A DNA stretch of 64,000 nucleotides from an uncultured Candidatus Rokubacteria bacterium (lineage in GTDB: Bacteria; Methylomirabilota; Methylomirabilia; Rokubacteriales; DASRDR01). The stretch is taken from NCBI GenBank assembly GCA_963708025.1, contig CAVPSB010000019.1, positions 96,001 through 160,000 on the forward strand, read 5' to 3'. Each line of letters opens with the position of its first letter. Position 1 is the stretch's first letter. The translations under genes were made by a program, and so were the position numbers. The notes beneath the pieces were generated by a model. That model was not told where the DNA came from, did no database searches, and saw nothing but the letters and a program-made list of their open reading frames with translations. This document shows, in pieces, positions 11,779 through 53,244 of this stretch.

Positions 11779-11850
11779 CGCGGCAGCGCGCCGAGGGCCG
11801 CTCCCACTCCGCTTCGTAGCAGGGGCGCGGGGGCGTCCGGCCGATCAGGG

Positions 11851-12879: not shown

Positions 12880-12924
12880 CGCGAGTCCTCCTCGGGGGAA
12901 GAAGGGGCGGGAGCCGGTGAGACC

Positions 12925-25168: not shown

Positions 25169-25216
25169 CGAGGGCTCTCCTTTGCGGGGTTCCGGGTTCG
25201 CGGTGGCGCGCGCTCG

Positions 25217-35484: not shown

Positions 35485-35540
35485 GCACGCCGCGCGCCGG
35501 CTGGCTTCTCGCGACGCGCTGGCCTTGGCCCCGCGGTAGG

Positions 35541-35618
35541 GTGTTCCAACTCCGAGCCGCGCCTTCGCCGCGGCCTCCGAGGGGGGGAATCGGGGGGTCT
35601 TCCGAGACCCCCCCGAAG
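35541..35618 (-). repeat. Repeat family A, copy 3
   Basis: Reverse complement of the 2474 element. Confidence 0.8.
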
Positions 35619-35622
35619 TCGC

Positions 35623-36177
35623 TCAGGCGCCGACGATGACGCCGACGACCTTCTGGAGCTGGCTGATGTCGATCGGCTTGTTGAGCATCGTGAACGGCCC
35701 GGTCTCCAGGGCGCGGGACATCAGATCCGAGTCGGGGTAGCCGGTCACGATCACCACCGGCAGCTCGGGCCGGATCGCATGGAGCTGGCGGAAGGTCTCC
35801 ACGCCGCTGATGCCGGGCATGATGAGGTCGAGCAGGACGAGGTCGAGATCGTTCTGCTTGGCGATCTCCAGGGCTTCCTCGCCGCTGGCGGCCGTGAAGA
35901 TCTGGCGCTGGCCGGTCTGGAGCGCGGAGACGATGAACTGGCGCGTCACCTCTTCGTCGTCCACCACCAGGAGATTCACGCGCAGGGTGGCGGCGTGCTG
36001 CCGGAACCAGTCATCGAGGATGGACTTGTGAAAGCGCCACTGGCGGCCGACCTTGTGGCCCGGCAGCTCCCGGCGCTCGGCGAGGCGATAGACGGTGGAA
36101 ACGGGAAGCTTGAGATACGCGGCCACGTCGCGGATTGTCAGGATCTCGGCGTCTCCGGCCCGTCGCCGCTCGACCAT
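35623..36177 (-). CDS. Excisionase-type HTH + receiver domain response regulator
   Basis: ILTIRDVAAYLKL..STVY...KVGRQWRF, then LVVDD..LLD..MP..NKP; possible longer start at 36402. Confidence 0.85.
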   Translation of the reverse strand: MVERRRAGDAEILTIRDVAAYLKLPVSTVYRLAERRELPGHKVGRQWRFHKSILDDWFRQHAATLRVNLLVVDDEEVTRQFIVSALQTGQRQIFTAASGEEALEIAKQNDLDLVLLDLIMPGISGVETFRQLHAIRPELPVVIVTGYPDSDLMSRALETGPFTMLNKPIDISQLQKVVGVIVGA

Positions 36178-36705
36178 GGTTTGTCCTTCCGTCTGCTTCC
36201 CCGCCTGCTTGTCAGCCCCCGGCCTTCCACCGCGTGACCGCTGCGACGCCTTCCCATCTCTCAACGCTGTTGGGGTTAATTCCGGGTAGGCCGACATAGT
36301 TCCATTCGTTCGGGTGGGTGTCAAGGGAAAAGGGTTTGGCTCGATGGACAGTCCCTCGACGTCTCCGGCTGAAACGCTGGGTTTCCGGGGTTTTCGCGCC
36401 ATGTCCTGGTCTCCCTCCCCATCGGCTCCTGGTGGTCCCCTGGGCCTTCGGGGTCGGCGGTGAGGAGTGCAACGGCAGTACCAAGAAACGCCCGCTCCCG
36501 CTAAGCCATGGCCGGGAAAGAGTACCCCAAGGCGGTCGCGGCCGACCGTGGGCAATTCCTGCTCGCACTTCCCAGCCAGTCGAGCCTGTTTCTAACCAGG
36601 CTCCCGCATGGGACTGGCGACTTGCCGGTCACTCGACCGAATTCGCCTGCAGTGAGGCTGCCTTGACACCCGATCCGGCGCTGGGGTACGGTGGGGGCGC
36701 CCCCG

Positions 36706-36948
36706 ATGCACACCCAGCTCCAGGCCGACCGGGTTCTCGACTGTCTCGGGCTATTCTGCCCGATGCCGATCGTCAAGACCCGGGAGGCGATGAAGACCAT
36801 GACCGCCGGCCAGGTGCTCGAGATGCGCTCCGACGACCCCGCCAGCGAACCCGACATGAAGAGCTGGGCTCAGCGGACCGGGAATGAGCTCGTTGCGGTT
36901 ACGAAGGACGGCCCGATCTACCGATTCCTGGTCCGAAAGACCCGATAG
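36706..36948 (+). CDS. tusA: TusA-family sulfur carrier
   Basis: LDCLGLFCPMP, SDDP; upstream TTGACA(36663)-N18-TACGGT. Confidence 0.9.
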   Translation: MHTQLQADRVLDCLGLFCPMPIVKTREAMKTMTAGQVLEMRSDDPASEPDMKSWAQRTGNELVAVTKDGPIYRFLVRKTR

Positions 36949-38116
36949 GTCGGGGCTGCCGCGCCCCGGACGCCGGGTCTACGTCGACTACGCCGGGTTT
37001 GTGCCTGTCGATCCCCGGGTGCTGGCCGTGATGACCCCGTTCCTGGAGGGCTGGGTGGGGAACCCCTCCGCGCTCCATGCGCTCGGCCAGGAGGCGCGTG
37101 ACTCGCTCGATGCCGCTCGCGCCAAGATCGGCCGCCTGGTGGGGGCGCGTCCGGATGCGGTCCTCTTCACGAGCGGCGCCACCGAGGCCAACAACCTGGC
37201 GATCAGGGGCATCGCCCTCCGGAGCGGCAAGCGTCACATCCTGACCACCGCGATCGAGCACGCCTCCGTCCTCACGCCGTGCCGCGATCTCATGAAGGCG
37301 GGCTTCGAGGTGACCTACCTGCCCGTCGACCGTGAGGGCCGGGTCACGCCGGCGGACGTGCGCACGGCGCTCCGGGCCGACACCTGTCTGGTCTCCATCG
37401 GCGCGGCCAACGCCGAGATCGGCACGATCCAGCCGTGGCGCGGCATCGCCGCGATCACGCAGGAGGCCGGCGTCCCTCTCCACGTCGACGGCGTCGGCGC
37501 GGTGGGCCGGGTGGCGCTGGCGGTCGAGGCCGACGGGATCGACCTCCTCACGATCGCGGCCAACGACCTCCACGGCCCGCCGGGCGTCGGGGCCCTCTGG
37601 GTGCGGCCCGGGCTCACGCTGGTCCCGCAGGTCCTGGGCGGGGGCCAGCAGGACGGTCTCCGCTCGGGCACGGAGAACCTCGCCGGGGTGGTGGGGCTCG
37701 GCGTCGCCGCCGAGCTGGCGCTCCGGGAGGGCCCCGGCGAGCGCGAGCGCGTGATGGCCTTGCGGGACCGGCTCATCGAGGGCCTGGCCCTCGCCTGTCC
37801 GCAAGCGCGGCTGACGGGGCCGCGGGTCGGCCGGCTGCCGCACCACGTGAGCCTGGCGGTGACCGGGGTCAAGGGGGAGAGCCTGATCCTGGCGCTGGAC
37901 CTGGTGGGGATCTCGGCCTCCACGGGCTCCGCGTGCGCCACCCTGACCGGCGAGCCCTCGCGCGTGCTGCGTGCCATCGGGCTCGACCCCCTGGCCGCCG
38001 CCGGCTCGCTCTGCGTGACCTTGGGGCGGTGGAGCCGGCCCGAGGACGTCCAGGCGCTCCTCGCGGAGCTGCCGCCGATCGTCGACCGCCTGCGCGCCCT
38101 CTCGCCGATCCACTGA
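36884..38116 (+). CDS. IscS/NifS-like cysteine desulfurase homologue with the PLP Lys replaced by Asp
   Basis: GNPS, FTSGATEANN, IEH, RSGTEN, STGSAC; AANDLHGP in place of SxHKxxGP; start uncertain. Confidence 0.85.
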   Translation: MSSLRLRRTARSTDSWSERPDRSGLPRPGRRVYVDYAGFVPVDPRVLAVMTPFLEGWVGNPSALHALGQEARDSLDAARAKIGRLVGARPDAVLFTSGATEANNLAIRGIALRSGKRHILTTAIEHASVLTPCRDLMKAGFEVTYLPVDREGRVTPADVRTALRADTCLVSIGAANAEIGTIQPWRGIAAITQEAGVPLHVDGVGAVGRVALAVEADGIDLLTIAANDLHGPPGVGALWVRPGLTLVPQVLGGGQQDGLRSGTENLAGVVGLGVAAELALREGPGERERVMALRDRLIEGLALACPQARLTGPRVGRLPHHVSLAVTGVKGESLILALDLVGISASTGSACATLTGEPSRVLRAIGLDPLAAAGSLCVTLGRWSRPEDVQALLAELPPIVDRLRALSPIH

Positions 38117-38123
38117 TCGACGC

Positions 38124-38825
38124 ATGCGTCTCGTCCTCTTCGACATCGACGGGACGCTGCTGTCGGCGGGCGGCGCGGGCCGGCGCGCGCTCGGTCGCGC
38201 CCTGATGGACGTCTACGGCACCGCGGGGCCTATCGACACCTACGACTTCCGTGGCGGCACGGACCCTCAGATCGTCCGCGATCTCCTCGGGGCGGCCGGG
38301 CTGCCGCCCGCGGACATCGCGGCGCGCGAGATGGAGCTTTACGGGCGCTACCTCGAGCACCTCGAGGAGGAGATCGGGGACGGACACGGCGTCCGGCTGC
38401 TCCCGGGCGTGACCGCGTTGGTGGAGGCGCTGGCGGCCCATCCCGCCTGCGTCGTCGGGCTCCTTACCGGGAACATCGAGGCGGGCGCGCGGGTGAAGCT
38501 GCGGAGGACCGGCCTCTGGCCCCGGTTCCGGCTCGGGGCCTACGGCTCCGACGACGGGGACCGCACCCGGCTACCCGCGGTGGCGGCGCGGCGCGCCGAG
38601 GCCCTCGTCGGGCACGTGTTCCGCGGCCGCGACCTGGTCGTCATCGGCGACACGCCGCGCGACGTCGGCTGCGGGCGGGCCTTCGGGGCGGTGTGCGTGG
38701 CCGTGGCCACCGGCTGGCACGCGGTCGCCGAGCTCTCGGGCTGCGGGCCCGACCACGTCTTCGCCGATCTCAGCGAGACCGACCGGGTCATCGCGGCGAT
38801 CTTCGACAGCCACCCCGGAGGCTGA
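38124..38825 (+). CDS. HAD-family hydrolase/phosphatase
   Basis: FDIDGTL, LTGN, IGDTPRD. Confidence 0.9.
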   Translation: MRLVLFDIDGTLLSAGGAGRRALGRALMDVYGTAGPIDTYDFRGGTDPQIVRDLLGAAGLPPADIAAREMELYGRYLEHLEEEIGDGHGVRLLPGVTALVEALAAHPACVVGLLTGNIEAGARVKLRRTGLWPRFRLGAYGSDDGDRTRLPAVAARRAEALVGHVFRGRDLVVIGDTPRDVGCGRAFGAVCVAVATGWHAVAELSGCGPDHVFADLSETDRVIAAIFDSHPGG

Positions 38826-38832
38826 CGGTCCA

Positions 38833-39261
38833 GTGGAGCGGATCGTCGTCGTCTGGCTCCACCTGCTGGCGGCGTCGGCCTGGGTCGGAGCCTTCCTCTT
38901 CGTGAGCCACCTGGTGGTCCCGGCCCTCGCCCGCGGCGAGCGCCCCTACCTGGGACTCCTCGAGCGCGCCCGCGTCGTGGCGTGGGCGGCGATCGGGCTC
39001 CTGCTCGTGACCGGCCTCGACAACCTCCGCCGGGTGCGGCTGGACAGCCCGTGGCTGATCGCGAAGCTCCTCCTCGTCCTCGTCCTCCTCGCGCTGGCCG
39101 CCCACCGGGACTTCGCCCTCGTCCCACGGGCGATCCGCATGATCGCGCGGGGTGGCAGTCCGGCGGTCGCGCTCGGCGGGCTCCGCTGGCTCGACCGCGT
39201 TCTGCTGATCGTCGCCATGGTCGTGTTCTTCCTTGGGGTCGGTGTCGCCCGGGGCCGCTGA
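38833..39261 (+). CDS. CopD/DUF4149-like 4-TM membrane protein
   Basis: WLHLLAASAWVG, LLVTG, hydrophobic helices. Confidence 0.7.
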   Translation: MERIVVVWLHLLAASAWVGAFLFVSHLVVPALARGERPYLGLLERARVVAWAAIGLLLVTGLDNLRRVRLDSPWLIAKLLLVLVLLALAAHRDFALVPRAIRMIARGGSPAVALGGLRWLDRVLLIVAMVVFFLGVGVARGR

Positions 39262-40424
39262 TGGCCGTGACGACGGTCGTGGTCGGCGGTGGGATCGGCG
39301 GACTGTCCGTCGCCCGTGAGCTGACGCTCCGTGGTCTCCCGGTCGTCGTCCTCGAGAAGGCGCCGAAGCTGGCGCCGGTGGGCGCCGGCATCATCATGAA
39401 CCCCAACGCGATGCGGGTCCTGGAGCGGAACGGGCTCGCCGCCGCGCTGCGGGAGCGGGGGTGGCCGTACCTCGCCCGCGATTCTTGCGATCACCGGGGC
39501 CGGCTCCTCGCGCGGCGGGACTACCGCCCGCTCTACGCGGCCGGCACGCTCGCGGTCGGCACGCTCGTTCACCGCGCCCACCTCCACCACGCGCTCTACG
39601 ACAGCCTGCCGGCCGGGACCGTGCGTTTCGGCGCCCCGGTGGTGGACCTCGAGGTCCGCCCGGACCGGGTGGGCGTGGAGCTCGAAGGCGGGGAGCGCCT
39701 GGAGGCCGACCTCCTGGTCGGCGCCGACGGGATTCGCTCCCTGGTCCGCGAGGCGGTCTTCGGCGCCGCCGTCCCTGTCTACCTGGGCTACCGCTCGCAC
39801 CGCCTCGTCGTTGACAATCGCGACCGGATCGAGGACTTCACCGAGTTCCTCGGACGGGGTAAGCGGGTCGGCCTGGTGCCGATCTCGCGCGACTCCCTCT
39901 ACGTGTGGACGACGTTCAACTCGCCGCCGGAGTCCACCGACCACGCCCTCGCCAGCGTGGCCGAGTTCCGGGCCCGCTTCGCGGAGTTCACCGACCCCCG
40001 GGTCCGCGGCGCGCTGGCGCAGCTCGAGTCGACCGATGGGATCCTCTGCACCGACGTCGAGGAGGTCCATCAGGAGTCGTGGGTCGCGGGTCGAGTCGTG
40101 CTCCTCGGCGATGCCGCCCACGCGCTCACACCCAACATGGGGCAGGGAGCCGGCATGGCGATGGAAGACGCGGCCGTGCTGGCCGAGACGCTGGACACGG
40201 TTCGGGTGGGCGCCCGGCCGCTCCCGGCGGCGCTGACGTCCTACGTGGAGCGGCGCCGCCCACGCGTCGCCACGGTCGTGCGGCTCTCACGGGAGGTGGG
40301 GGCGGACGGCCAGCGGATCGGCCGGCTCGCCTGCTGGCTCCGCAATCGTCGGATCCGCCGTGACGGCCGGGATGTCCGCCGGGTACACGACGGGCTCGAG
40401 CGGCTGCTGGCCTATCCGATCTAG
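39261..40424 (+). CDS. FAD-dependent monooxygenase (group A)
   Basis: GGGIGG, GADGIRS, LGDAAH..PNMGQGAGMAMEDA. Confidence 0.9.
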   Translation: MAVTTVVVGGGIGGLSVARELTLRGLPVVVLEKAPKLAPVGAGIIMNPNAMRVLERNGLAAALRERGWPYLARDSCDHRGRLLARRDYRPLYAAGTLAVGTLVHRAHLHHALYDSLPAGTVRFGAPVVDLEVRPDRVGVELEGGERLEADLLVGADGIRSLVREAVFGAAVPVYLGYRSHRLVVDNRDRIEDFTEFLGRGKRVGLVPISRDSLYVWTTFNSPPESTDHALASVAEFRARFAEFTDPRVRGALAQLESTDGILCTDVEEVHQESWVAGRVVLLGDAAHALTPNMGQGAGMAMEDAAVLAETLDTVRVGARPLPAALTSYVERRRPRVATVVRLSREVGADGQRIGRLACWLRNRRIRRDGRDVRRVHDGLERLLAYPI

Positions 40425-40501
40425 GATTTCGGGGGGGTTACGCGCTGAGCGGCCGGCCATGTCCTCCAGCGCCTCGGGGCGGACGACCAGCGGGTCACCG
40501 C

Positions 40502-41167
40502 TCACGCTGGCCCTCGGGTGTCGATGCCGGTGATCTTGATGGCCGCGGCCTTGGATTTGTAGCGCCGGTTGAGCCGCACCATCACCGCGGTCAGACCCTC
40601 GAGGATCGCCGCCATCGTGAGCGGCCCGGCGTCGAGGGCACGGACCCCGAGGTCTTCGATCAACCGCATGGCCGCCGCTTTCGCCGCGGCGTCGTCCCCG
40701 CAGACCAGCACGTCGGCATCCAGCGGGTGGTCCAGGCTCGACAGCTCGTGGGCGGCCAGGGCGTGGAGCCCGGCCACCACTCGCGCCTCGGCTCCGAGGA
40801 TCGCCTGGGCCTCCTCGGCCGCCGAGCCCGCCGGGGGGGGCGCGTAGAGCCGCGGGCCCTTGAAGTCGAGCGGCACGACGGTCTCCAGGACGATCTTGCC
40901 CGCGAGCACCGGGCGGAGCGTGGCGAGGAGCGCCCCGTGGCTCTCGTACGGCACCGCGACCACGACCAGCTCGCCCTCGCGGCTGGCCGCCTCGTTCGTC
41001 CGGCCGTCGAACAGGCCGCCGGGCACGAGGCGCGCCAGTTCGCGGGCCCGCTCGAAGGCGCGCTCCGCGCTCCGGGACCCGATGAGGACCTCGTGGCCGG
41101 CGCGCGCCCAGCGAAGCGCGAGCCCGGTGCCCTCCTTGCCGGTTCCACCGAGGATCGCCACGATCAC
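40502..41167 (-). CDS. npdG: F420H2:NADP+ oxidoreductase
   Basis: ILGGTGKEG.GLA.RWA, IGSRS, GSAAE, DVLVCGDD, LN.RYK. Confidence 0.88.
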   Translation of the reverse strand: MIVAILGGTGKEGTGLALRWARAGHEVLIGSRSAERAFERARELARLVPGGLFDGRTNEAASREGELVVVAVPYESHGALLATLRPVLAGKIVLETVVPLDFKGPRLYAPPPAGSAAEEAQAILGAEARVVAGLHALAAHELSSLDHPLDADVLVCGDDAAAKAAAMRLIEDLGVRALDAGPLTMAAILEGLTAVMVRLNRRYKSKAAAIKITGIDTRGPA

Positions 41168-42093
41168 GGGCGTCTCCCCCTCGATGCCCACCACGCGGTC
41201 AACCCCAGCCCGGCCGCCGTGGCGACGGCGACCGGCCAGAAGTTGGTGTGGAGGACCGGGATCGCGGAGAACGCCGAGCGGCGCTGCGCCGGGCGGAGCC
41301 GACCGTCGAGGATCGCGTCCACGACGGCCATGGCCTCGGTGAGGAGGACCCCCAGGATCGCCTTGGCGAAGGCGGGATCGGCCAGCGCGGGATGGCCCAC
41401 GTAGCCCTGTCCGCCGTCCCGGAGGGGGTAGTTGGGACGGAGCCGGGCCATCAGCGAGTAGCGCGCCGGCGGCAGCGTCCGGTAGGCCGGGTTGACCAGC
41501 TCGGGGTGGAGTGCGAGCATGACCGACGTCTCCAGCAGGCCGCCGTGGGCGTCGTCGGCGAGGGCCGCCCGCTCCTCGGCCGAGAGGGTCCGCCCGAGCG
41601 CGGCTTCGATCTTGTCGGTGTACCGGCCCCGGAGAAATTCCCAGGCCAGGTGGCCGGTGAACGAGGCCATGGTGACGCCGTAGCGTCGGGACACGATGGC
41701 GGCTGCCTCTTCGAGCGCCACCAGGTGGCCGGGCCCGGCGTGACCGCTCGCCACCAGGATGGCGCGGAAGCCCGCCCGCGCCAGCGAGCTGCCGTAGTCC
41801 ACCAGGACGTCCCGTACCACGCGCTGGCGCATCGAGACCGTGCCGGGCGCCTCGAAGGCGAAGCAGCCGAGATGGAGGGGCGGGGCCAGGACGGCGGTCC
41901 AGCCGGGCCGGGTGGTCGTGAGGCGCTCCGCGACCGCTTCTGCGAGCTGCCGGGCCGTGAAGGCGTCTACGCCGAGGGGGAGGTGCGGGCCGTGCTCCTC
42001 GAGCGGGCTCACCGTGAGGAGGATGACGGTGCGGTCGCGGTCCAGGGCGTCGAGCGCCGGCGAGGAGAGCTCCTCGAGGCGATGCGTGCTCAT
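41164..42093 (-). CDS. Creatininase-family amidohydrolase with a C-terminal hydrophobic tail
   Basis: PLEEHGPHLPLGVD, SGH, DAHGG..ETS. Confidence 0.85.
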   Translation of the reverse strand: MSTHRLEELSSPALDALDRDRTVILLTVSPLEEHGPHLPLGVDAFTARQLAEAVAERLTTTRPGWTAVLAPPLHLGCFAFEAPGTVSMRQRVVRDVLVDYGSSLARAGFRAILVASGHAGPGHLVALEEAAAIVSRRYGVTMASFTGHLAWEFLRGRYTDKIEAALGRTLSAEERAALADDAHGGLLETSVMLALHPELVNPAYRTLPPARYSLMARLRPNYPLRDGGQGYVGHPALADPAFAKAILGVLLTEAMAVVDAILDGRLRPAQRRSAFSAIPVLHTNFWPVAVATAAGLGLTAWWASRGRRP

Positions 42094-43544
42094 GCAAAGC
42101 TGCTCGTGGTCGCCTTCAGGTAATCCTCCTTGGCGCGCTCGAGCTCCGCGATGATCGCCTCCCGTTCGGCCAGGAGGCGCGAGGCGCCGTGGTGCCGGGT
42201 CAGGACGAGCGCCGCGAAACGGAGCCGGTTCCGCAGCCGGCCGAGGCCGGCCCAGTAGTGGTAGGCCACGACACCGCTCAGCGGGAGCGACGCCGCGAAG
42301 ACCGCCGCCCAGCGGAGGCCGGCCCACCGCCAGACGAGCCACGTCTCGATTCCCCAGATCAGCGGGAAGGCGACGATGCTGGTCAGGAGCCGCACCGTGG
42401 CATAGTCCGTCTCCTTTCGGGCGAGGCGGCGGGAGAGCCAGCGCGGCAGGAAGTATGGCAGCGCATTGACGACGACGCCGTACGCGAAAATCGGCAGCCC
42501 CAGCACCGCGACGCCCGAGGTGCGGAGCCGGCTCCGGGGCCGGCTCCCCGGGGCCCCCCCGAGCCGAGCCTGGACCGCCTGATCGCGGATCCGGTACTCG
42601 GCCAGCATGGCGCGGTAGCCCTGGATGCGCTGCCACAGCCGCTCCACGCGCTCGGGCTCGCGCGCCTTGAAATGCGTGACGGCGTCCCCGATGGCGCGGG
42701 AGAGGCGGAGGGGGTCGATCTCGCCGCGCTGGAGACCGCGGTCCGCCTGGAGCTGACGCACCAGCTCGCTCCGGTACAGCTCCTCCACGGCCCGCGCCAG
42801 CTCGGCGGCGTCGATCCGGTCGGCGTGGATGACCTGGGCTTCCATCGCCCACTGGAGCCGCGTCGTCAACGCGTCCACCGCCTTGGCCGGGTCCTCGCGG
42901 TAGATGGCCCGGTGCGGAGCGACCGGCACCGGCGCGCCGAAGGCGATCAGCACGCGGCCCCGGAACGACTTGCGAGCCTCGAAGGACAGCCCGACGGGGA
43001 TCACCGCCAGCTCGTCTCCGCCCCGGCCGGGGCGGTCGGCCTCGTAGGCCAGCGCGATGCGCGCCGCGCCGGTCTTGATCCGCTGGACTCGCCCCTCGGC
43101 GTGGGTGGTTCCCTCCGGGTAGATGCCGATCAACCGGCCCTCGCGGAGCGCCTCCAGGCAGGCGGCGAACATCTCGACGTTCCGGTCCATCTTGTCCGGG
43201 TCGTCCTGACGCCGGTAGACAGGGATGGCGCCACAGCGACGGAGGAACATCGCCATCAGCGGATGGCGGAACAGGGCGGCCGTGGCCAGGTAGTGGACCT
43301 TGCGCGGTATGGCGACCCCGACCAGCAGCGAGTCGATCAGGTTGTTGGGGTGGTTGATGCAGAGGAGCACGGGCCCCCGGTCGGGCACCCGCTCGGGATG
43401 CCGGACCTCCACGGCCTTGAAGAAGAACCAGACCCAGAAGCGCCCGAGCAGCCGGACGGCGGTGTAGAAGCGATCCCTGCGCTCCGGCGAGGCTGGCGAT
43501 CCGGGGGACTCGGGCGCTCCAGCGGCCGCCCCGCGCGAGCTCAC
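42090..43544 (-). CDS. Lysophospholipid/glycerol-phosphate acyltransferase
   Basis: NHPNNLID (HX4D), YPEG, KTGAAR; C-terminal TM helices. Confidence 0.88.
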   Translation of the reverse strand: MSSRGAAAGAPESPGSPASPERRDRFYTAVRLLGRFWVWFFFKAVEVRHPERVPDRGPVLLCINHPNNLIDSLLVGVAIPRKVHYLATAALFRHPLMAMFLRRCGAIPVYRRQDDPDKMDRNVEMFAACLEALREGRLIGIYPEGTTHAEGRVQRIKTGAARIALAYEADRPGRGGDELAVIPVGLSFEARKSFRGRVLIAFGAPVPVAPHRAIYREDPAKAVDALTTRLQWAMEAQVIHADRIDAAELARAVEELYRSELVRQLQADRGLQRGEIDPLRLSRAIGDAVTHFKAREPERVERLWQRIQGYRAMLAEYRIRDQAVQARLGGAPGSRPRSRLRTSGVAVLGLPIFAYGVVVNALPYFLPRWLSRRLARKETDYATVRLLTSIVAFPLIWGIETWLVWRWAGLRWAAVFAASLPLSGVVAYHYWAGLGRLRNRLRFAALVLTRHHGASRLLAEREAIIAELERAKEDYLKATTSSFA

Positions 43545-43840
43545 GTCCGGAACCGGCGCCAGAACAGCAGGAATCGCGCGGACTTCAGCGTCATCGCGCC
43601 CCAGTGTAGGAAACGCGGGACGCGCGTGTCAAGGATGGGACGGGCGCCGACGATGCACGATCGCGTGATGACTCGACACTTCTGTCTTGACACCGTGGCG
43701 GCTCTGCAGTTCAGTAGGAGGTGACGCGAGGATGAGGCGCCGTCCCGCGTCGCGGCAGGAACCCTCAAGGAGGCTGGTGATGGAGACTCCACCGGACCTG
43801 CCAGGCGCGCCATCGGGGCTGGCTGCCTGATGGCGCGCGG

Positions 43841-43958
43841 CTTCGACTGAAGGACACGTCATCCCGGCTCCTGCCGGGACGCGCAGCGAGCCTGCGCAAG
43901 ACCACGAAGTCCCGGGGACGGTCGCGGTGCACCGCCGACGTCCCCGGGCTTGTTTTTT
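43841..43958 (+). ncRNA. Candidate riboswitch aptamer plus intrinsic terminator
   Basis: Stem CTTCG/CGAAG encloses two hairpins; followed by CCCGGGGACG..CGTCCCCGGG-CTTGTTTTTT just before the RBS. Confidence 0.45.
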
Positions 43959-43972
43959 CGCGAGGAGGTAGC

Positions 43973-44314
43973 GTGATCACCAAGGAGACCGAGCGTTCCA
44001 CCTATCTCGACGTCCACGGCATGGCGTGGGAGCCGAGCCCGTACCCGGGCATCGAGAACAAGGTCCTGTACGCGGAGCCGGCCGGCCGGCGCACCGTCCT
44101 CACGCGCTTCGCGCCCGGCGCCCGGCTGCCCCGCCACCGCCACGTCGGCCTGGAGCAGAGCTTCGCCCTGGAAGGCACGCTGGTGGACGACGACGGGGCG
44201 TGCACGGCAGGGAACTTCGTGTGGCGCCGGCCGGGCTCGGTCCACAGCGCCTGGTCCCCGGAGGGCTGCGTGGTCCTCGGCATCTTCGAAGCCCCCAACG
44301 AGTTCCTTCGCTGA
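43973..44314 (+). CDS. ChrR-like cupin domain protein
   Basis: W..SPYPGI, LPRHRH.GLEQ..LEG, RPGSVH. Confidence 0.85.
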   Translation: MITKETERSTYLDVHGMAWEPSPYPGIENKVLYAEPAGRRTVLTRFAPGARLPRHRHVGLEQSFALEGTLVDDDGACTAGNFVWRRPGSVHSAWSPEGCVVLGIFEAPNEFLR

Positions 44315-44725
44315 CCGGAGCCCTCGAGGTCTCGCGGCCGAGCGAGCCGGCTGAGCCTCGGCCCGCCTGACCCGGTCGAGGCCGCACCACTTCCGCCCGC
44401 TCCCCTGACCACTCGGGGACCACACGCACGGTGGCCCCCGCAGCGGTGGGGATGCCGTGAACCGGCCTCGAAGCGCCAGCCCGCTCAGTTCCTGACCGTG
44501 ACTGCGGTCACGGTCTAGCCATTCTGTCACTTCCGCCCGGGCCCCCGGGAGACGCCGGCAGCTGGAAGCGCCCGTGTCTCAAGGGGTCTACCATTAGGTG
44601 TTACCGTGGCATCATATTTGCTGGAAAACCCTGAGCCTGATGCCGGTCGCTGATCGCTAGAATCGCCGCCACCACACCCGCCGACGGTCGGATCCACTCG
44701 AGTCGGTAGTAGGGGAGGGGGGACC

Positions 44726-45478
44726 ATGCCTCGCACGCTCGCGTTCCTTGCCTGCCTGCCGCTGATCCTGGTCGCCTGGCAGAGTCCGGCGACGGCCCAG
44801 GACAGCGTTCTGTACGAGGTGGTCGAGAACCTCGACGTGTCTCGGCTCGAGGAGGGCGTCCGCGTGTCGTACTGGACCGCGCAGGGCCGGGCCCGGGCCG
44901 GGTCGCCGTTTTGCCCGGAGGAGGCGCTGGCCCGCATCAGGTCGAAGGCGAAGTCGTGCTCGGTGACCGCCTTCGGGACGGATTCGATCGATCTCCTCAC
45001 TCTGCACGGCACCGTGTGGGCCAACATCGCTTCGGTCGTGAACTGCGACAACGTCGTGGACGCCCCCGAGTGCGTCGTCCTGACCGGTCAGATGGAGGGG
45101 CTGGTCTCGCTGGTGCCGTTCGAGGGCGCTCCCGTCGTCCCCGAGCTCGGCAAGCGCCGGCAGATCATCGGCCCGGCGGTTCCCCTGATCTATGTCGTCG
45201 GCACGTTCAGCCCGGACGACGAGGTCACGCTGCGCCAGTCGCCCCCCGACAAGCCGCCGCCGCCGGGGCCGATCCAGCTCCAGGCGACGTTCCGGCTCCC
45301 CTTCCAGATCTCCAAGAAGGGAAGGCCGGTGCCGGCCCAGCCGGACAAGGCCTTCTACCTCGACGACGACGGGAGCCTGATCAAGGTGCACCGGAACGAG
45401 TCCGCCCTGGGTGTGCCGGTTCTCCGCGCCGAGGTGACCTTCGAGCGCCCGCACCGACCGGGGAGGCACCACCGCTAG
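44726..45478 (+). CDS. Secreted hypothetical protein
   Basis: RBS, signal peptide (ATA-Q), 4 Cys, host-like codon usage. Confidence 0.7.
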   Translation: MPRTLAFLACLPLILVAWQSPATAQDSVLYEVVENLDVSRLEEGVRVSYWTAQGRARAGSPFCPEEALARIRSKAKSCSVTAFGTDSIDLLTLHGTVWANIASVVNCDNVVDAPECVVLTGQMEGLVSLVPFEGAPVVPELGKRRQIIGPAVPLIYVVGTFSPDDEVTLRQSPPDKPPPPGPIQLQATFRLPFQISKKGRPVPAQPDKAFYLDDDGSLIKVHRNESALGVPVLRAEVTFERPHRPGRHHR

Positions 45479-45512
45479 GAGGCGACCCGGCGGCCGCGGC
45501 CGGGTTCGAGCC

Positions 45513-46898
45513 TTACCGGAAGAGGTCCTGGGAGGGGTCGCGAAGGAGCTCGCGCGCCGAGCCGGCGCCGGGGGTGTAGGCGTAGCCGCGAACCAGGGCC
45601 ACCGGCACCGCGTCCAGCTTTCCCATCACCAGCTCGGCCGCGCTGGCCAGCTCGTCGGCGACGGCGAGCACCGTCGCCTGCAGGACGTAGCCGTGGATGT
45701 CCGGTACCCCCAGGTAGCTCCGGAGCGGCCGCATCCCGGCGACGCCGATGGCCACGTTCTGGAGGCCCTCGCGCCACGGACGGCCGAAGGTGTCGGCGAC
45801 GATGACCGCGACGTCGGCGCCGGCGAGCGCGCGGAAGCGCTCGACCAGCGCCCGGGCCGAGGCGTCGGGGTCTTCGGGGAGCAGGCTGACCCAGCCGGCG
45901 CCGGCGTTCGACTGATCCACCCCGGCGTTGGCGCAGACCTGGCCATGGCGGGTCTCGGTGATCAAGATACCCCGGTCCATGCGCACGACGCGCCGGGACT
46001 CGCGCAGGATCACCTCGACGAGTCGTGGATCCTTCTTGAGGCTCCCTCCCACCTCGATCGCGAAGGGGGACGGCGTGACTTCGGCCAGCCGCACCATGCG
46101 GCCCTCGGCCTTCGACACCACCTTCTGGCTCACCACGGTGACGTCGCCGGTCGCCAGCGGCGTGCCCTGGGCGGCCGCGGCGCCCAGGACCAGGGCGGCG
46201 AGGTCATCGCCCGGCCGGACCTCGGGGATGCCCCGGATGCCGAGCACCTCGAGGCGGGGCGCTGTCCCGTAGCCGAACGAGCGGAGCAGTCCCGCCGCGC
46301 GGGTGTGGGCGCCGAGGGCGAGGAGCGCCTCGAGGTCCTCCGGGGCGTCGATGTCGAGGCCGGCGCCGGGCAGCCCCAGGATCACCGGCTCGATGCCCCG
46401 GGCTCGGGCGGCGGCGACATGGTCGGCGAACGAGGGCTCGCCGAAGCGCAGCGGGAGGGCGTCGGGCGGGGCGAGGCAGGCGGCGTTGGTGCCGAGGCCG
46501 CTGTGCGACGGCACGAGGACGGCCGCCGGCGGCCGGCCGCAGGCCGCCAGCACGGCGCGCACCTCGCCGGCGGTCAAGCACGGGAGATCGCCGGGGACCG
46601 TGAGCATGACGGCCGCTCCCAGCTCCCGGCAGGCGTCCAGCCCTCGGGCCACCGCCGCCGTGTGCCCCTCGCTCTCGCGCTCCACGAGCACCGCGGCCCC
46701 TTGGGCCTCGGCGAGCGCGCGGACATCCGCGTCGGGCGTCACCACCACGATCCGGTCGAGGCCGCCGTCCCGGAGCGCCGCCAGCACGTCCTCCAGCATC
46801 GCGCGGGCCAGGGCCGAGCGGGCTTCTGCGGGGAGCGCCCGGGCCAGGCGCTGCTTGGCGCTCCCGAACTCCTTGGCGGGAACGACCGCCACCTTCAT
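45513..46898 (-). CDS. cofC-cofE: Fused CofC (guanylyltransferase)-CofE (F420-0:gamma-glutamyl ligase)
   Basis: VVPAK..AKQRL, PGDLP, GTNA, FG..SF..H, DIDAPEDL, then GIPEVRPGDDL, SQKVVSKAEG, ANAGVDQSN, DTFGRPWR, ADELAS. Confidence 0.9.
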   Translation of the reverse strand: MKVAVVPAKEFGSAKQRLARALPAEARSALARAMLEDVLAALRDGGLDRIVVVTPDADVRALAEAQGAAVLVERESEGHTAAVARGLDACRELGAAVMLTVPGDLPCLTAGEVRAVLAACGRPPAAVLVPSHSGLGTNAACLAPPDALPLRFGEPSFADHVAAARARGIEPVILGLPGAGLDIDAPEDLEALLALGAHTRAAGLLRSFGYGTAPRLEVLGIRGIPEVRPGDDLAALVLGAAAAQGTPLATGDVTVVSQKVVSKAEGRMVRLAEVTPSPFAIEVGGSLKKDPRLVEVILRESRRVVRMDRGILITETRHGQVCANAGVDQSNAGAGWVSLLPEDPDASARALVERFRALAGADVAVIVADTFGRPWREGLQNVAIGVAGMRPLRSYLGVPDIHGYVLQATVLAVADELASAAELVMGKLDAVPVALVRGYAYTPGAGSARELLRDPSQDLFR

Positions 46899-47851
46899 CG
46901 TGGGACACCCGCCGTGTCCAGGACCAGCCGGGCCAGGCGCGCCTCGCCTTCCGCCCCGGTCATCAGCGTGTCGCCGACGATGGGGCGGACGCCGCGCGCC
47001 GCCAGATCGGGGGCCAGCGCCGCGTCCCGGCGGTCCACGACGAGGGCGTCGAGCCACGGGGAGTAGAGCATGGCCACGCTCACGGCCGAGACCGGCAGCC
47101 CGCGGGCGGCGAGAAGCTTTCCGGCCGGTCCGCTCACCGGCGCGTCCCCGATGATCGGGCTCACCGCGACCACCGGGGCCGGGGTGGTCACGAGCGCCTC
47201 CATGATGCCGGGGACCGCCAGGACGGGGCCGATCGAGGTCACCGGATTGGAGCAGCAGACGATGACCGCCTCGGCGTGCCGGATCTCGTCGAGGAGCCCC
47301 GGCGCCGGTCGAGCAGCGCCGGCGCCTTCGTAGGCCACCCCCCGGATCTCGGGCTGGGCCTTCTCGCGGACGAAGAACTCCTGGAAGCCGAGCCAGCCGT
47401 CGCGGGTCAGGATGCGCGTGCGGACCCGGTCATCCGACATCGGACAGAGGCGCACCCGCACGCCCAGGGCGGCGGCGATCACGCGGGTCGCCTCGGAGAG
47501 CGAGGCTCCGCTCAGCAGGAGGTCGGTGCGGGCGAGGTGGGTCGCGAGATCGCGGTCGCCGAGACCGAACCACGTGTCCCGGCCGAGGCGGCCCATGCCG
47601 GCCCGGCAGTGGAAGGTGTCGTCCCGGACGCCCCAGCCCTTGACGGGATCGAGCAGACCGGCCAGCGCGTACATCACCGAGTCGAGGTCCGGCGAGACGT
47701 GGAGGCCCCAGCACTCGAGGTCGTCTCCGGTGTTGCCGACGACCAGGAGGCGCTCGGGATCGATGGCGCCGGCGAGGCCCCGGAGGAGCTTGGCGGCGCC
47801 CGTACCTCCAGCCAGCGCAACGATCATCTCGGGCACATCCATCTCGGGCAC
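46895..47851 (-). CDS. cofD: 2-phospho-L-lactate transferase
   Basis: ALAGGTGAAK, NTGDD, SPDLDS, LGDRDLATH, SNP..SIGP, SGPA. Confidence 0.93.
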   Translation of the reverse strand: MPEMDVPEMIVALAGGTGAAKLLRGLAGAIDPERLLVVGNTGDDLECWGLHVSPDLDSVMYALAGLLDPVKGWGVRDDTFHCRAGMGRLGRDTWFGLGDRDLATHLARTDLLLSGASLSEATRVIAAALGVRVRLCPMSDDRVRTRILTRDGWLGFQEFFVREKAQPEIRGVAYEGAGAARPAPGLLDEIRHAEAVIVCCSNPVTSIGPVLAVPGIMEALVTTPAPVVAVSPIIGDAPVSGPAGKLLAARGLPVSAVSVAMLYSPWLDALVVDRRDAALAPDLAARGVRPIVGDTLMTGAEGEARLARLVLDTAGVPR

Positions 47852-47878
47852 ATCGTTCAGTCGGAACTAGACTGACCC

Positions 47879-48086
47879 GCGCCGGGTTGAGAAGCGAGCA
47901 GCCCTAGGACGCAGGGAGTCGCCGACCGCAGGCGTACTCCGAGTACGCCGAGGATCGGCGACGACCGAAGGCCGTCCGAACGACGACCATAGGCCGGGAC
48001 GGACGCGAGGCCGAAAGCCGTCCGATCGACGTAGGCCGAGCGCGTCACGGCCGAGATGGACGCTGCGAAGCTTATCGACCCGGCGC
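47879..48086 (-). repeat. Structured repeat family B, copy 2
   Basis: Reverse match to 61070-61263; terminal IR matching 15/17. Confidence 0.85.
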
Positions 48087-48635
48087 TCAGCGGCCGCGGC
48101 GCCCGCGCTCTATCTCCGGCAACGCGATCGTGTAGCTCCCTGGCCGGCGCCAGGCGTGAAGCCCCGTCCCCGGGCGGCCGCGCAGCGAAGCGGGGAGTGA
48201 CGCCTCGGGGACGGGGATGAAGCCGAACCGCACCCACAGGCGGTCGAGGCCCTGGGGTCGCGTGAACAGGGTGTTGATCCCGAGTTGGGCGGCCTGACCG
48301 AGGAGGGGTGCCACGAGCTGCGCCGCCACCTCGAGCGACTCGCCTCCGGCCGGGGGTGCGACCACGACCGGCCCATGGACGAACCCGTGCTCCGCGTGGC
48401 GCTCGACCAGCACCCCACCCACGAGCCGGTCGTTCTCCACCACCGCTTCCCATCCGAGCTCGACCGGGCCTGGCGGCGGTGCCCACGCTCCTGCGAAGTC
48501 GAAGAGCTGCCGGATCTTGCCCGCCCCGGCCTGGCTCGGGCGGTAGAGAACGCCCTGCCAGGTGCGGGGTGGGGGAACCGCGGCCGCCGGCTCGGCCGCC
48601 GGGGGGCTAACCGGCCGCCGGGCCGACCGCGGCAT
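48087..48635 (-). CDS. GNAT-like hypothetical protein
   Basis: VVENDRLVGGV...LFT...WVRFGF pattern. Confidence 0.55.
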   Translation of the reverse strand: MPRSARRPVSPPAAEPAAAVPPPRTWQGVLYRPSQAGAGKIRQLFDFAGAWAPPPGPVELGWEAVVENDRLVGGVLVERHAEHGFVHGPVVVAPPAGGESLEVAAQLVAPLLGQAAQLGINTLFTRPQGLDRLWVRFGFIPVPEASLPASLRGRPGTGLHAWRRPGSYTIALPEIERGRRGR

Positions 48636-48642
48636 GGCGCGC

Positions 48643-48937
48643 CTACTTCTTGCCGCCGAGGACCGCGTCCTTCATGGCCTTGGCCACGCGGAACTTCACC
48701 ACGCGCTTGGCCGCGATCTTGATCGGCTCCCCGGTCTGCGGATTGCGCCCCATCCGGGCCTTCCGGTTCGAGAGCACCAGCTTGCCGAAGCCAGGAACGA
48801 CGAAGCCGTTCTTCTTGGCCTCCTTGACGGCCAGCGCCTGGAACTCGTCCAACAGGCCGACCACCTGCTTCTTGGTGAGGGTCGAACTTGTCGGCCAGGT
48901 GCGAGATCACCGAGGACTTGGTCATCATCTTTGCCAT
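48643..48937 (-). CDS. hup: HU-family DNA-binding protein (single frameshift near 48880)
   Basis: MAKMMTKSSVISHLA joined to GFGK...RMGRNPQTGE.IKI..KFR. Confidence 0.88.
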
Positions 48938-49024
48938 CGACACGCTCCTTTCAGGGGTGTGTGGGTCATGCCACCCGGGCCGGGTGGCGAGCGGGGCGTG
49001 TTGCCCTCCGCATGGTTTCCTGCC

Positions 49025-50326
49025 TCACGTGCACCTCGGGCCGGACGGCCGTCCGGCGGCGACCGGCGCCGCCATCGGATGTGCGAACCGAAAGTCCTTG
49101 GACTCCGCCAGGCGCCGGTAGGAGCCGAAGCGCGCCTCCGGGTCGTCCACCGTATCGAGCGGCTCGGGCTCGTCCTCCATCGGGTCGGCGTAAAGCTTCA
49201 GGATCTCGTAGGTGGTGCTCCGCTGCGCTGGGATCCGGCCGAGGTCCCGCGCCAGCCGGCGCAGCTCAGCCGGTGGCACGAGCTGCCCGTAGGGTGCCCC
49301 GGCCGAAGTGGAGATGCTCTCGTTGATCAGGGTGCCGCCGACGTCGTTGGCTCCGGCGGCCAGCAGCATCTGGGCGAGCTTGGGTCCCTCCTTGACCCAC
49401 GAGCTCTGGATGTTCCGGAACGTGGCACCCAGCATCAACCGGGCCAGCGCGTGGACGCGCACCACCTCGGCCCCGGTGGCGCCGGGCCGGACGCCAGCCA
49501 CCAGGCGCCGCTGGTACATCGGCGCTTCCTGGTGGATGAGGGACAGCGGGACGAACTCCGTGAAGCCGCCGGTATCCCGCTGGACATCACGGAGCAGTGC
49601 CAGGTGGCGCACCCAGTGGGCCGGCGTCTCGATGTGTCCGTACATCATGGTCGACGTCGTGCGGATCCCCAGCCCGTGGGCGGTGGTGATCACCTCGAGC
49701 CACTGTCGGGTCGAGATCCGCCCCTTCGCGATCACGTCGCGGATCTCGTCGTCCAGGATCTCGGCCGAGGTGCCCGGCAGCGTGCCGAGCCCGGCGGCCC
49801 GCAGCTCGGTCAGGTACTCCCGGATCGAGAGACCCGACCGCGTGACCCCGTACAGGACCTCTTCCGGCGAGAACGCATGGATGTGGAGGTCGGGCAGCTC
49901 GCGCGCGATCGTCCCGCACAGCTCGATGTAGAACCGGCCGTCGAGCTTCGGCGGGAGCCCGGCCTGGATGCACACCTCGGTGGCGCCCAGCTCCCGCGCC
50001 TCCCGGGCCCGCCGGACGATCTCCTCCATCGGGAGGAGGTAGCCCTCCTCTTCCCGGTGGTCCCGGCTGAAGGCGCAGAACGTGCAATGCTTGATGCAGA
50101 CGTTGGTGAAATTGATGTTGCGGTTGACGACGTAGGTCACGACGTCCCCCGCCTGGCGGGATCGTAGCTCGTCGGCCACCAGGGCCAGGGCCTGGAGCTC
50201 GCGCCCGGTGGCCTCGCAGAGGGCGAGCCCGTCGGCCACCGACGCCTCGCCGCCCTCCAGCGCCCGGTCCAGGGCGGCCCGCGCGCCGCGGCCAATGCCG
50301 TCGAACAGGGCGCCGAGCTGACTCAT
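49025..50326 (-). CDS. cofH: FO synthase subunit 2 (radical SAM)
   Basis: VVNRNINFTNVCIKHCTFC, LPGTSAEILDD, NIQSSWVK.G, GTLINESIS. Confidence 0.93.
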   Translation of the reverse strand: MSQLGALFDGIGRGARAALDRALEGGEASVADGLALCEATGRELQALALVADELRSRQAGDVVTYVVNRNINFTNVCIKHCTFCAFSRDHREEEGYLLPMEEIVRRAREARELGATEVCIQAGLPPKLDGRFYIELCGTIARELPDLHIHAFSPEEVLYGVTRSGLSIREYLTELRAAGLGTLPGTSAEILDDEIRDVIAKGRISTRQWLEVITTAHGLGIRTTSTMMYGHIETPAHWVRHLALLRDVQRDTGGFTEFVPLSLIHQEAPMYQRRLVAGVRPGATGAEVVRVHALARLMLGATFRNIQSSWVKEGPKLAQMLLAAGANDVGGTLINESISTSAGAPYGQLVPPAELRRLARDLGRIPAQRSTTYEILKLYADPMEDEPEPLDTVDDPEARFGSYRRLAESKDFRFAHPMAAPVAAGRPSGPRCT

Positions 50327-51543: not shown

Positions 51544-51956
51544 TCGATGACCCGCTCGGGTGTGATCTTGATCATCGGCGCCCGGGGGGCGAGGGGGGTC
51601 GTCGCGTGGTATTGCGGGTACTTCGCCAGGAGCAGGCCCCGTGCCGCCTCCCACTCGGGCCCCGGCTCGAGGAGCTCGGCCTGGCCCTGGACCATGACGT
51701 AGCGGAGCTGGCGCCAGTCCTCCGCGTAATGGTCGAAGAGGAGCGCGACCCGCGGGTTCGCGCGGATGTTCCGCACCCGTCGCAGCCGTTCCGGCGGGAG
51801 CCGCTTCGGCTTGGCGTCGAGCGCCGAGTAGTAGGCCTGGCCGTCGGTGGCATAGCAGACCGGCACCAGGTGAGGGTACCCCGTCTCGTCGACGGTGGCG
51901 AGCCGGGCGACCCGGCTCTCGGCAGCGAGTGCCCCTCGCGCGCCGGACCCCGACAT
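51528..51956 (-). CDS. PPOX-class (split-barrel) putative F420-dependent protein
   Basis: RVARLAT..PHLVPV, D.KPK, NIRANPRV, DHY.EDW. Confidence 0.85.
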   Translation of the reverse strand: MSGSGARGALAAESRVARLATVDETGYPHLVPVCYATDGQAYYSALDAKPKRLPPERLRRVRNIRANPRVALLFDHYAEDWRQLRYVMVQGQAELLEPGPEWEAARGLLLAKYPQYHATTPLAPRAPMIKITPERVIEWSAA

Positions 51957-52945: not shown

Positions 52946-53244
52946 GGGCTGACCTCCGCTCGCTGCACGCCGGCCCTGCTTCACAGCGACCGATCGTATG
53001 CCGATTCTCGCCGCAACGCAAGGGGCGAAAAATCCGGAAGCCCTCGCGCGCCCGCGTGGAATGCGCCCGGAACGCGCCTCGCCTCCGGGCGGCACCGGTC
53101 TGGCCTCCACCGGCGGCCTCCGCCACCGGACGCGGCCGCTCGCCGGCTGAGGACCGGCTGAGGAATTGTTTGACAAGCCCGCGGCTCTCGTACGACCCTG
53201 ACTTTCTCGCGGCCACGGGTCGTGGAGTGTCGGGGAGGACGGAT

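Follow-up and report, generated by a model that had tools for sequence, protein, structure and literature searches.

A 64,000-nucleotide stretch of DNA from an uncultured Candidatus Rokubacteria bacterium (GenBank assembly GCA_963708025.1, contig CAVPSB010000019.1, positions 96,001 to 160,000; hereafter the window) encodes a TusA-family protein and, directly behind it, an IscS-like protein in which the lysine that binds pyridoxal phosphate (PLP) in cysteine desulfurases is replaced by aspartate. The tusA gene reaches from ATG 36706 to the stop codon ending at 36948 on the plus strand and encodes 80 amino acids (PF01206, 87.4 bits against a cut-off of 28.6). The gene for the IscS-like protein, a class-V aminotransferase (PF00266, E 1.9e-59), lies on the same strand and runs from ATG 36884 or TTG 36893 to 38116. 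These two codons are the only in-frame ATG, GTG or TTG upstream of the conserved YVDY motif, and because none occurs between the tusA stop codon (36946-36948) and YVDY, the start falls 56-65 nt inside tusA. A sole canonical iscS-like start inside tusA was also found in nine of the 18 related Rokubacterial loci described below, and both genes appear to form a translationally coupled pair. They are followed head to tail on the plus strand by genes for a HAD-superfamily hydrolase, a CopD-like protein and a monooxygenase dependent on flavin adenine dinucleotide (FAD), so that the unit comprises five genes.

Counted from ATG 36884, the motif AANDLHGP begins at residue 225 and contains Asp228, which is encoded by GAC at 37565-37567, and the mobile-loop motif STGSAC begins at residue 346, with the cysteine codon at 37934-37936. 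SGATEAN, IEHAS and HVDGVG are also found in the protein. The numbers given to single residues of the window protein in the following (D225, N224, C348 etc.) count from TTG 36893. In ungapped HMMER and BLASTP alignments, the aspartate stands opposite Asp199 of Archaeoglobus fulgidus IscS (SSNDIYGP); an ungapped alignment likewise places it opposite Lys206 of Escherichia coli IscS (SGHKIYGP), whose sequence was taken from the annotated K-12 locus. The Lys-to-Asp change is a substitution and not an indel, as the preliminary description of this locus had stated for its multi-codon differences. Its other readings of the DNA, namely the aspartate at the PLP-lysine site, the cysteine loop, HVDGVG and the five genes, were upheld as well.

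The replacement of the lysine is accompanied by further changes in the pocket. K206, H205, S203 and Q183 of E. coli IscS correspond to D225, N224, A222 and G202 of the window protein, the last of which means that the glutamine of the HxDAxQ motif is replaced by glycine, and N155 corresponds to alanine. T76 (T97 in the window protein), H104 (H123), D180 (D199), T243 (T260), R354 (R379) and C328 of SSGSAC (C348 of STGSAC) are kept. We take Q183, S203 and N155 of the E. coli enzyme to be PLP contact residues, and R354 presumably binds the substrate carboxylate. The IscS-like protein contains only four lysines, K78, K113, K135 and K327, and by alignment all of them lie outside the known PLP-contact positions of E. 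coli IscS. The protein has the class-V aminotransferase fold, with a PF00266 match covering residues 32-392, and the mobile-loop catalytic cysteine of type I PLP-dependent cysteine desulfurases; the lysine that forms the aldimine in these enzymes (E. coli K206 within SxHKxxGP) is missing. As the internal PLP aldimine cannot form without this lysine, the protein is presumably not a conventional cysteine desulfurase. Every NCBIfam desulfurase equivalog scores under its cut-off, including NifS TIGR03402 (402.5 against 530.75), IscS TIGR02006 (312.5 against 643.2) and PRK14012 (318.8 against 548). By analogy with the inactive A. fulgidus IscS, which holds pyridoxamine phosphate (PMP), conventional desulfurase activity would be lacking here, and public annotations that call these Rokubacterial proteins 'cysteine desulfurase' are probably wrong. 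A canonical desulfurase was not found in the 64-kb window.

Among solved structures, the best match by sequence is A. fulgidus IscS 4eb5 (E 2.7e-106). An AlphaFold2 model built from a 31-row alignment reached a mean predicted local distance difference test score (pLDDT) of 85.9; residues 1-23 score below 50 and are predicted to be disordered. With this model, the top Foldseek match was 4hvk, again A. fulgidus IscS, with template modelling (TM) scores of 0.87/0.96, a root-mean-square deviation of 1.5 Å and 46% identity, and TM scores of 0.88/0.93 were obtained for E. coli IscS 1p3w. The IscS-like protein thus carries Asn-Asp in place of His-Lys, has A. fulgidus IscS as its nearest solved relative by sequence and fold, and is an A. 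fulgidus-type Lys-to-Asp IscS homologue or paralogue; the adjacent IscU partner, which forms an (IscS-IscU)2 complex in the A. fulgidus type, is missing from the locus.

The substitution is not confined to this genome. A word-indexed search returned 7677 proteins at E <=1e-20 among 8000 scored candidates, and the Asn-Asp pair is present in each of the best 120 of these 7677 (61-97% identity). Together with the window protein and 18 genome loci, these 120 sequences were combined into an alignment of 139 sequences from Rokubacteria/Methylomirabilota, in which Asn224, Asp225, His123 and Asp199 are invariant (139/139). Thr97 is found in 138 of 138 and Arg379 in 137 of 137 aligned residues, the equivalent of Gln183 is glycine in 137 of the 139, and the position of S203 varies between Ser, Ala and Gly. 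A smaller alignment (A1; 31 sequences, 57-84% identity) contains 83 invariant columns. The Lys-to-Asp change is therefore fixed and under selection. It could be argued that the gene is a decaying or functionless paralogue carried beside tusA, given that the catalytic lysine and further PLP contacts are lost, that the loop cysteine is missing from some relatives and that all desulfurase equivalog scores stay below their cut-offs. This explanation is hardly credible in view of the invariant columns of A1, the Asn-Asp pair in all 139 sequences, the intact open reading frames (ORFs), the confidently predicted fold and the synteny with tusA, which is kept across bacteria and archaea. Isolated decay, the alternative named in the preliminary description, and a pseudogene are rejected on the basis of A1 and the conservation across the 139 sequences.

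Two broader samples place the Asn-Asp proteins within the family. An exhaustive search among 50%-identity cluster representatives yielded 11,299 proteins at E <=1e-30; among the best 150 of these, the lysine is kept in 129 (118 His-Lys, nine Ser-Lys, one Gly-Lys and one Gln-Lys), and Asn-Asp occurs in four, another non-Lys residue in 16 and a gap at the site in one. A scan of GTDB species genomes with the family alignment returned 80 loci, for which the site reads Asn-Asp in 36 cases, Asn-Asn in one (L036), His-Asn in five and Ser-Val in one, with the lysine kept in 38. Loci L001-L018 are metagenome-assembled genomes (MAGs) of Rokubacteria/Methylomirabilota with 57-66% identity; L019-L039 include Thermoplasmatota, Methanothrix and other Methanosarcinales, Desulfobacterales, Stahlbacteria, Thermoleophilia and Bacillota. 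In a quick IQ-TREE analysis of all 81 rows, the Asn-Asp and Asn-Asn sequences fall on one side of a branch with a Shimodaira-Hasegawa-like approximate likelihood ratio (SH-aLRT) support of 95; a Rokubacterial clade of 19 rows, with a support of 100, is set apart by a long stem (0.71). A careful IQ-TREE analysis of 52 rows chosen from the 81 recovered the Asn-Asp group with an ultrafast bootstrap (UFBoot) of 97 and an SH-aLRT of 96, and the group was seen in 96% of 200 bootstrap trees; the Rokubacterial rows reached 100/100, and the branch order within the Asn-Asp group is not resolved (30/63). A. fulgidus IscS was left out of all trees. A FastTree of 148 of 151 rows (the window protein and the 150 cluster representatives, with three fragments dropped) suggests at least 4-5 separate losses of the lysine, with most of its deep forks lacking support; here, the window clade is not joined with P0129 (SSNDIYGP), and the Asn-Asp rows are not all united. 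The IQ-TREE results were relied on for the Asn-Asp clade because they are better resolved. Losses of the lysine outside this clade (His-Asn, Ser-Val and other types) are real and separate. Among them is a second Lys-less group with the motif SAHNFYGP, in which Lys is changed to Asn (L038, L040, L042, L048 and L057). It is found in Gemmatimonadota, Deferrimicrobiaceae and other bacteria, IscU follows in these loci with no TusA match, and in the IQ-TREE analyses the group falls on the Lys-less side without belonging to the Asn-Asp clade.

The link between tusA and this type of iscS is strict. Using tblastn of the window proteins against all 80 loci, tusA was found no more than 1 kb upstream of iscS in all 35 testable Asn-Asp/Asn-Asn loci, in addition to the window, and in none of the 44 Lys-containing or other Lys-less loci, a few of which have short flanks. 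The synteny of tusA with a Lys-to-Asp iscS, for which the preliminary description had proposed a search, therefore exists. The gene stands immediately upstream in all 18 Rokubacterial loci. Of the 18 anaerobe Asn-Asp/Asn-Asn loci, 17 have it within ~0.7 kb upstream; the remaining one, L021, has an upstream flank of only 170 nt. In L001 (7837-8053) and L015 (7801-8017), tusA is matched in two separate frames, and in L016 the HAD match is split (9178-9859), which reflects either frameshifts or MAG assembly errors. Fusions of TusA and IscS were not seen among the best 120 matches, which have lengths of 299-415 residues, and no search was aimed at longer forms.

In anaerobic archaea and bacteria, the genes are arranged as a conserved module of tusA, dsrE-like, iscS(Asn-Asp) and iscU (L019-L037; e.g., L022 7371-9550 and L033 7396-9642). 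Sixteen of the 18 anaerobe loci encode a protein of ~120 amino acids between tusA and iscS. It has a conserved cysteine, and the five copies scanned against Pfam matched DsrE (PF02635, E 4e-9 to 4.5e-20); in L027 and L039, tusA directly abuts iscS. Frequent neighbours in these loci are genes for Fur, rubrerythrin, ferritin and desulfoferrodoxin. The window shares with this module the tusA gene directly upstream, here overlapping iscS, and has neither the dsrE-like gene in between nor iscU downstream. The module has not been described in the open-access papers and bioRxiv texts that were searched, and no literature linking TusA or DsrE to a Lys-less IscS was found in open-access papers and bioRxiv full text. 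Two further observations were made in this part of the survey. L032 (Methanosarcinales) has two inverted copies of tusA, dsrE-like and iscS(Asn-Asp), at 5653-7471 and 11249-13073; in the second copy, the matches to iscS and to the dsrE-like gene are each divided into two pieces, and these genes may be broken or misassembled. In L034 (Stahlbacteria, 6743-9822), the IscU ORF is long (275 amino acids as called) and is directly followed by a gene for a heavy-metal (HMA) P-type ATPase, a second putative metal transporter beside the module, alongside the Rokubacterial CopD-like gene.

Searches with three IscU proteins in tblastn placed iscU directly 3' of iscS in 44 of 62 non-Rokubacterial loci, among them every anaerobe Asn-Asp/Asn-Asn locus except L031 and L039, which gave no match (16 of 18), and the NifU_N domain PF01592 was confirmed in the IscU of the eight loci scanned. 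In the window and L001-L018, no IscU match (0/19) and no DsrE-like match was obtained. As the Lys-containing and His-Asn outgroups likewise have IscU behind iscS, this adjacency is ancestral, and the loss of iscU from the Rokubacterial locus is therefore derived. TusA is a trait of the whole Asn-Asp clade, and the local novelty consists of the loss of iscU and dsrE. The earlier idea of a system with TusA rather than IscU as the partner holds only for the Rokubacterial branch; in the anaerobe sister loci, TusA and IscU occur together. This distribution also bears on the view that the IscS-like protein is a pure scaffold of the kind proposed for A. fulgidus. Its loop cysteine would ligate an iron-sulfur (Fe-S) cluster or metal assembled on a partner from another locus, and TusA would deliver sulfur straight to that partner. 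In its favour is the A. fulgidus IscS-IscU(D35A) structure, in which, according to sections of PMC13066941 and PMC7585200, the cysteine of IscS ligates a [2Fe-2S] cluster, and the frequent IscU gene downstream in anaerobes fits such a role. The missing IscU in the window and the Rokubacterial loci and the loss of the cysteine from 12 of 138 members speak against it, and it leaves the invariant Asn-Asp and the pocket unexplained; we consider it quite improbable.

The TusA protein of the window has two cysteines, C13 and C18, in DCLGLFCPMP. In an alignment of 16 Rokubacterial TusA proteins (A2), C13, C18, R26, D44 and D50 are invariant and the motif reads DCxGLFCPxP. C18, R26, D44 and D50 align with C19, R27, D45 and D51 of E. 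coli TusA, which has alanine at the position of the first cysteine. The PF01206 domain, the CPxP cysteine and the Asp pair of TusA sulfur carriers are thus present. The extra cysteine, five residues before the CPxP cysteine, is shared by all 16 Rokubacterial TusA proteins and by 16 of the 17 from anaerobes, and it could allow the formation of a di- or trisulfide or the binding of a metal. In E. coli, C19, R27, D45 and D51 of TusA were tied to IscS docking or sulfur transfer, R27 and R31 pair with E49 and D52 of IscS, and W45 and R55 make van der Waals contacts, as reported in parts of PMC2854127. At these docking positions, the window protein has Asp for E49, Asp for D52, Gln for W45 and Arg for R55; across the family, conservation is limited to the positions of E49 and R55. 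Co-folding of TusA (A2) with the IscS-like protein (A1, residues 25-407) gave 0.00 in two runs without controls and speaks neither for nor against binding.

The strict synteny, the gene overlap and the conserved cysteines suggest a cysteine-independent sulfur relay or adaptor pair in which the dimer of the IscS-like protein acts as a non-catalytic partner of TusA, a reading that we put forward tentatively and rate a little below an even chance. Sulfane sulfur would reach Cys18 of TusA, perhaps with the participation of Cys13, from a source other than free cysteine, would pass to or from the mobile-loop cysteine of the IscS-like protein and would then be presented by the latter to an acceptor encoded elsewhere. 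The pair would descend from the anaerobe-type module of tusA, dsrE-like (in most loci), iscS(Asn-Asp) and iscU, where such a relay would serve the assembly of Fe-S clusters on IscU. The Rokubacterial lineage lost iscU and dsrE from the locus, and HAD (always) and CopD-like (usually) genes follow iscS instead. The TusA/IscS(Asn-Asp) pair is under selection even where the locus lost IscU and therefore has a function of its own.

Several results weigh against this relay. No sulfur source was identified, and with iscU and dsrE-like genes missing, no acceptor is encoded locally. The TusA protein scores below the cut-offs of the NCBIfam TusA equivalog (56.9 against 78) and of YedF (55.5 against 79), so that it is a TusA-family protein of undefined subtype, whose function as a carrier is suggested by family membership alone. 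The docking residues W45, D52 and D65 known from E. coli IscS are not conserved in the family. The synteny survey covers the window and the 80 loci and not the A. fulgidus locus. Finally, the loop cysteine is kept in 125 of 138 sequences (one more sequence is a fragment without the loop region, and P0094 is truncated with its loop cut short), and 12 of the 138, all of them full-length, have lost it by substitution or short deletion, with the pocket and Asn-Asp intact (P0047, P0062, P0069, P0070, P0074, P0087, P0102, P0112, P0114, P0117, P0118 and P0120). The clusters of P0062 and P0047 stand for 61 and 23 member sequences, respectively. The tightest constraint thus lies on the cofactor or ligand pocket and not on the persulfide loop, which weakens the persulfide carrier using the cysteine loop that had been proposed in the preliminary description.

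The same pattern favours the main rival explanation, in which the IscS-like protein binds a cofactor or ligand: PMP or PLP would be held non-covalently, another reaction would be catalysed or an amino-acid-like ligand sensed, TusA would be a substrate, product carrier or regulator, and the cysteine loop would be secondary. The pocket, with His123, Asp199, Asn224 and Asp225 in every sequence and Thr97 and Arg379 wherever they could be aligned, is the most conserved part of the protein, and ~9% of the members dispense with the cysteine. Moreover, both the wild type and the D199K variant of A. fulgidus IscS hold PMP, as described in sections of PMC8918507. Opposed to this are several of the very residues expected to hold the cofactor, as the glutamine, serine and asparagine contacts of the E. 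coli enzyme are gone or variable (Gly at Q183, Ser/Ala/Gly at S203, Ala at N155 in the window). No activity is known for any Lys-to-Asp IscS, and catalysis by a lysine-free fold-type-I protein would be unprecedented for the family. We regard ligand binding as rather unlikely.

The relay can also be extended to the whole clade. According to this proposal, which is possible if on balance doubtful, the Asn-Asp IscS and the two-cysteine TusA, joined in anaerobes by the DsrE-like protein and IscU, would constitute a distinct, cysteine-free type of sulfur mobilisation. Sulfur would enter as a persulfide or thiosulfonate bound to TusA or DsrE, and the IscS fold, originally that of an enzyme, would serve as the relay hub; the Rokubacterial branch, without IscU, would have redirected this hub to a new acceptor or to pocket chemistry that does without the loop cysteine. 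To our knowledge, a single example of a Lys-to-Asp IscS, from an archaeon, has been characterised, and the present data extend this type to a widespread soil bacterial phylum.

The conserved unit continues downstream with the HAD-superfamily hydrolase of the phosphoglycolate-phosphatase-like group (38124..38825, plus strand; PF00702, PF13419 and PF13242), the start of which lies 7 nt behind the IscS-like gene, and, after another 7 nt, with the CopD/DUF4149-like protein of 142 amino acids (38833..39261, plus strand), whose PF05425 score of 32.1 bits exactly equals the cut-off. The gene for the FAD-dependent monooxygenase (ATG 39261 to 40424, plus strand; PF01494, E 7.7e-33) overlaps the CopD-like gene by 1 nt (TGATG). 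The best solved relative of the hydrolase, 2hcf (E 4.1e-43), was deposited only as a HAD-like hydrolase, and its Atlas clusters are named phosphoglycolate phosphatase family. The Atlas clusters of the CopD-like protein, which we assume from its family to be located in the membrane, are CopD/DUF4149 and are commonest in Methylomirabilota. The NCBIfam matches listed for both proteins are all below their cut-offs, and the monooxygenase reaches 260 bits in PRK06847 against a cut-off of 372. Of the three downstream partners that had been proposed, two were borne out: the HAD gene follows iscS in 18 of 18 Rokubacterial loci and the CopD-like gene follows HAD in 14 of 18, where two of the four loci without it end within ~250 nt of HAD (L008 ends ~200 nt past HAD). 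The monooxygenase gave no tblastn match in the 80 loci, including the Rokubacterial ones (0/18), and is a lineage-specific addition outside the conserved unit. HAD and CopD-like genes are conserved neighbours, and nothing ties either of them to sulfur chemistry. A role of the HAD protein as a PLP/PMP-phosphatase was considered and dropped for want of any evidence.

The unit is bounded by genes on the minus strand. Upstream and divergent lies a gene for a response regulator with HTH_17 and receiver domains (35623..36177; PF12728 and PF00072; likely start ATG 36177), orthologues of which, with 54-72% identity, stand divergently upstream in L001, L003 and L006 only. Downstream and convergent is npdG, encoding an NADPH-dependent F420 reductase (40502..41194; TIGR01915, 189.9 bits, above the cut-off of 149.8), whose start is uncertain (41167, 41191 or 41194); a match on the opposite strand occurs downstream in 15 of the 18 Rokubacterial loci. 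Against Rfam, positions 35500-41500 gave a single match at E <=1, to a snoRNA and at the level of chance (23.6 bits; gathering score 50), and there is thus no riboswitch or leader in this region by Rfam. A consensus scan of 36400-40700 yielded neither promoter nor terminator sites, which fits a single transcription unit and is weak evidence at a genome G+C content of 70-74%. The G+C content of the window is 68-76%, and its closest protein matches carry Rokubacteria/Methylomirabilota names.

Beginning with npdG, a set of F420-related genes on the minus strand lies within positions 40502-53257 of the window. They include a creatininase-family gene (41164-42093), a CofC/CofE fusion (45516-47429), CofD (46898-47866), two radical-SAM genes (49028-51969), one with a match to the C-terminal domain of CofH, and a luciferase-like oxidoreductase (51959-53257). 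Elsewhere on the minus strand, three paralogous genes for MetE-like catalytic domains (PF01717) are located within 25 kb (280-1413, 11854-12924 and 24137-25216). An AcrB-family match (PF00873) at 3445-6827, also on the minus strand, is divided between two overlapping ORFs, one for profile positions 677-948 and the other for 2-140. Either the gene is frameshifted, or the division comes from the choice of ORFs in G+C-rich DNA.

The pairing of an IscS-fold dimer with TusA is known from E. coli (3lvj), and the window pair shares with it C19, R27, D45 and D51 of TusA as well as E49 (as Asp) and R55 of IscS. In E. coli, by contrast, IscS is enzymatically active with PLP and uses cysteine to load TusA, and there is no tusA next to iscS in the isc operon, whereas the genes of the window overlap. 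The window pair further differs in the loss of the lysine, in the second cysteine of TusA and in the lack of conservation at W45, D52 and D65 of IscS. A second point of reference is provided by the DsrEFH and DsrE3-TusA relays of sulfur oxidisers, which feed dissimilatory sulfur oxidation. Like these, the anaerobe sister loci pair TusA with a DsrE-like protein that has a single domain (PF02635) and a conserved cysteine. They differ in having an IscS-like protein and IscU as partners, and a DsrE-like gene is missing from the Rokubacterial loci.

Closer relatives are found in archaea. IscS1 of Methanosarcina acetivorans (MA0808; the MIS-type pair MisS/MisU), which was compared by description, also lacks the PLP lysine; unlike the window protein, it is archaeal and linked to IscU. 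Two Methanosarcinales loci (L028 and L032) have the order tusA, dsrE-like, iscS(Asn-Asp), iscU, and by analogy with these related loci, the 'unknown' genes beside M. acetivorans IscS1 probably include tusA and dsrE.

The closest counterpart is A. fulgidus IscS, named 'probable cysteine desulfurase 2' (PDB 4hvk, 4eb5 and 4eb7, with 4r5f for the D199K mutant). It shares with the window protein the fold, 46-47% identity, Asn-Asp in place of His-Lys (SSNDIYGP and AANDLHGP, respectively), the loss of the glutamine of HxDAxQ and the retained cysteine loop. It differs in working with an adjacent IscU, which the window locus lacks; moreover, the window protein has Gly, Ala and Ala at the positions of Gln183, Ser203 and Asn155, where A. 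fulgidus IscS keeps Ser and Asn-Asn. The account of A. fulgidus IscS in the preliminary description agrees with sections of PMC7585200 and PMC8918507: the protein has Asp199, binds PMP and is inactive as a desulfurase (PMC8918507), and it lends a cysteine ligand to the IscU cluster (PMC8918507 and PMC7585200). In the same sections, the 2022 review PMC8918507 lists as open the source of sulfur and the way in which Fe-S clusters form there if no desulfurase activity is present. A cysteine-free route, if true, would answer where the sulfur of the A. fulgidus-type IscS-IscU system comes from, and the strict linkage makes TusA a concrete and testable candidate for the missing sulfur supply of Lys-to-Asp IscS.

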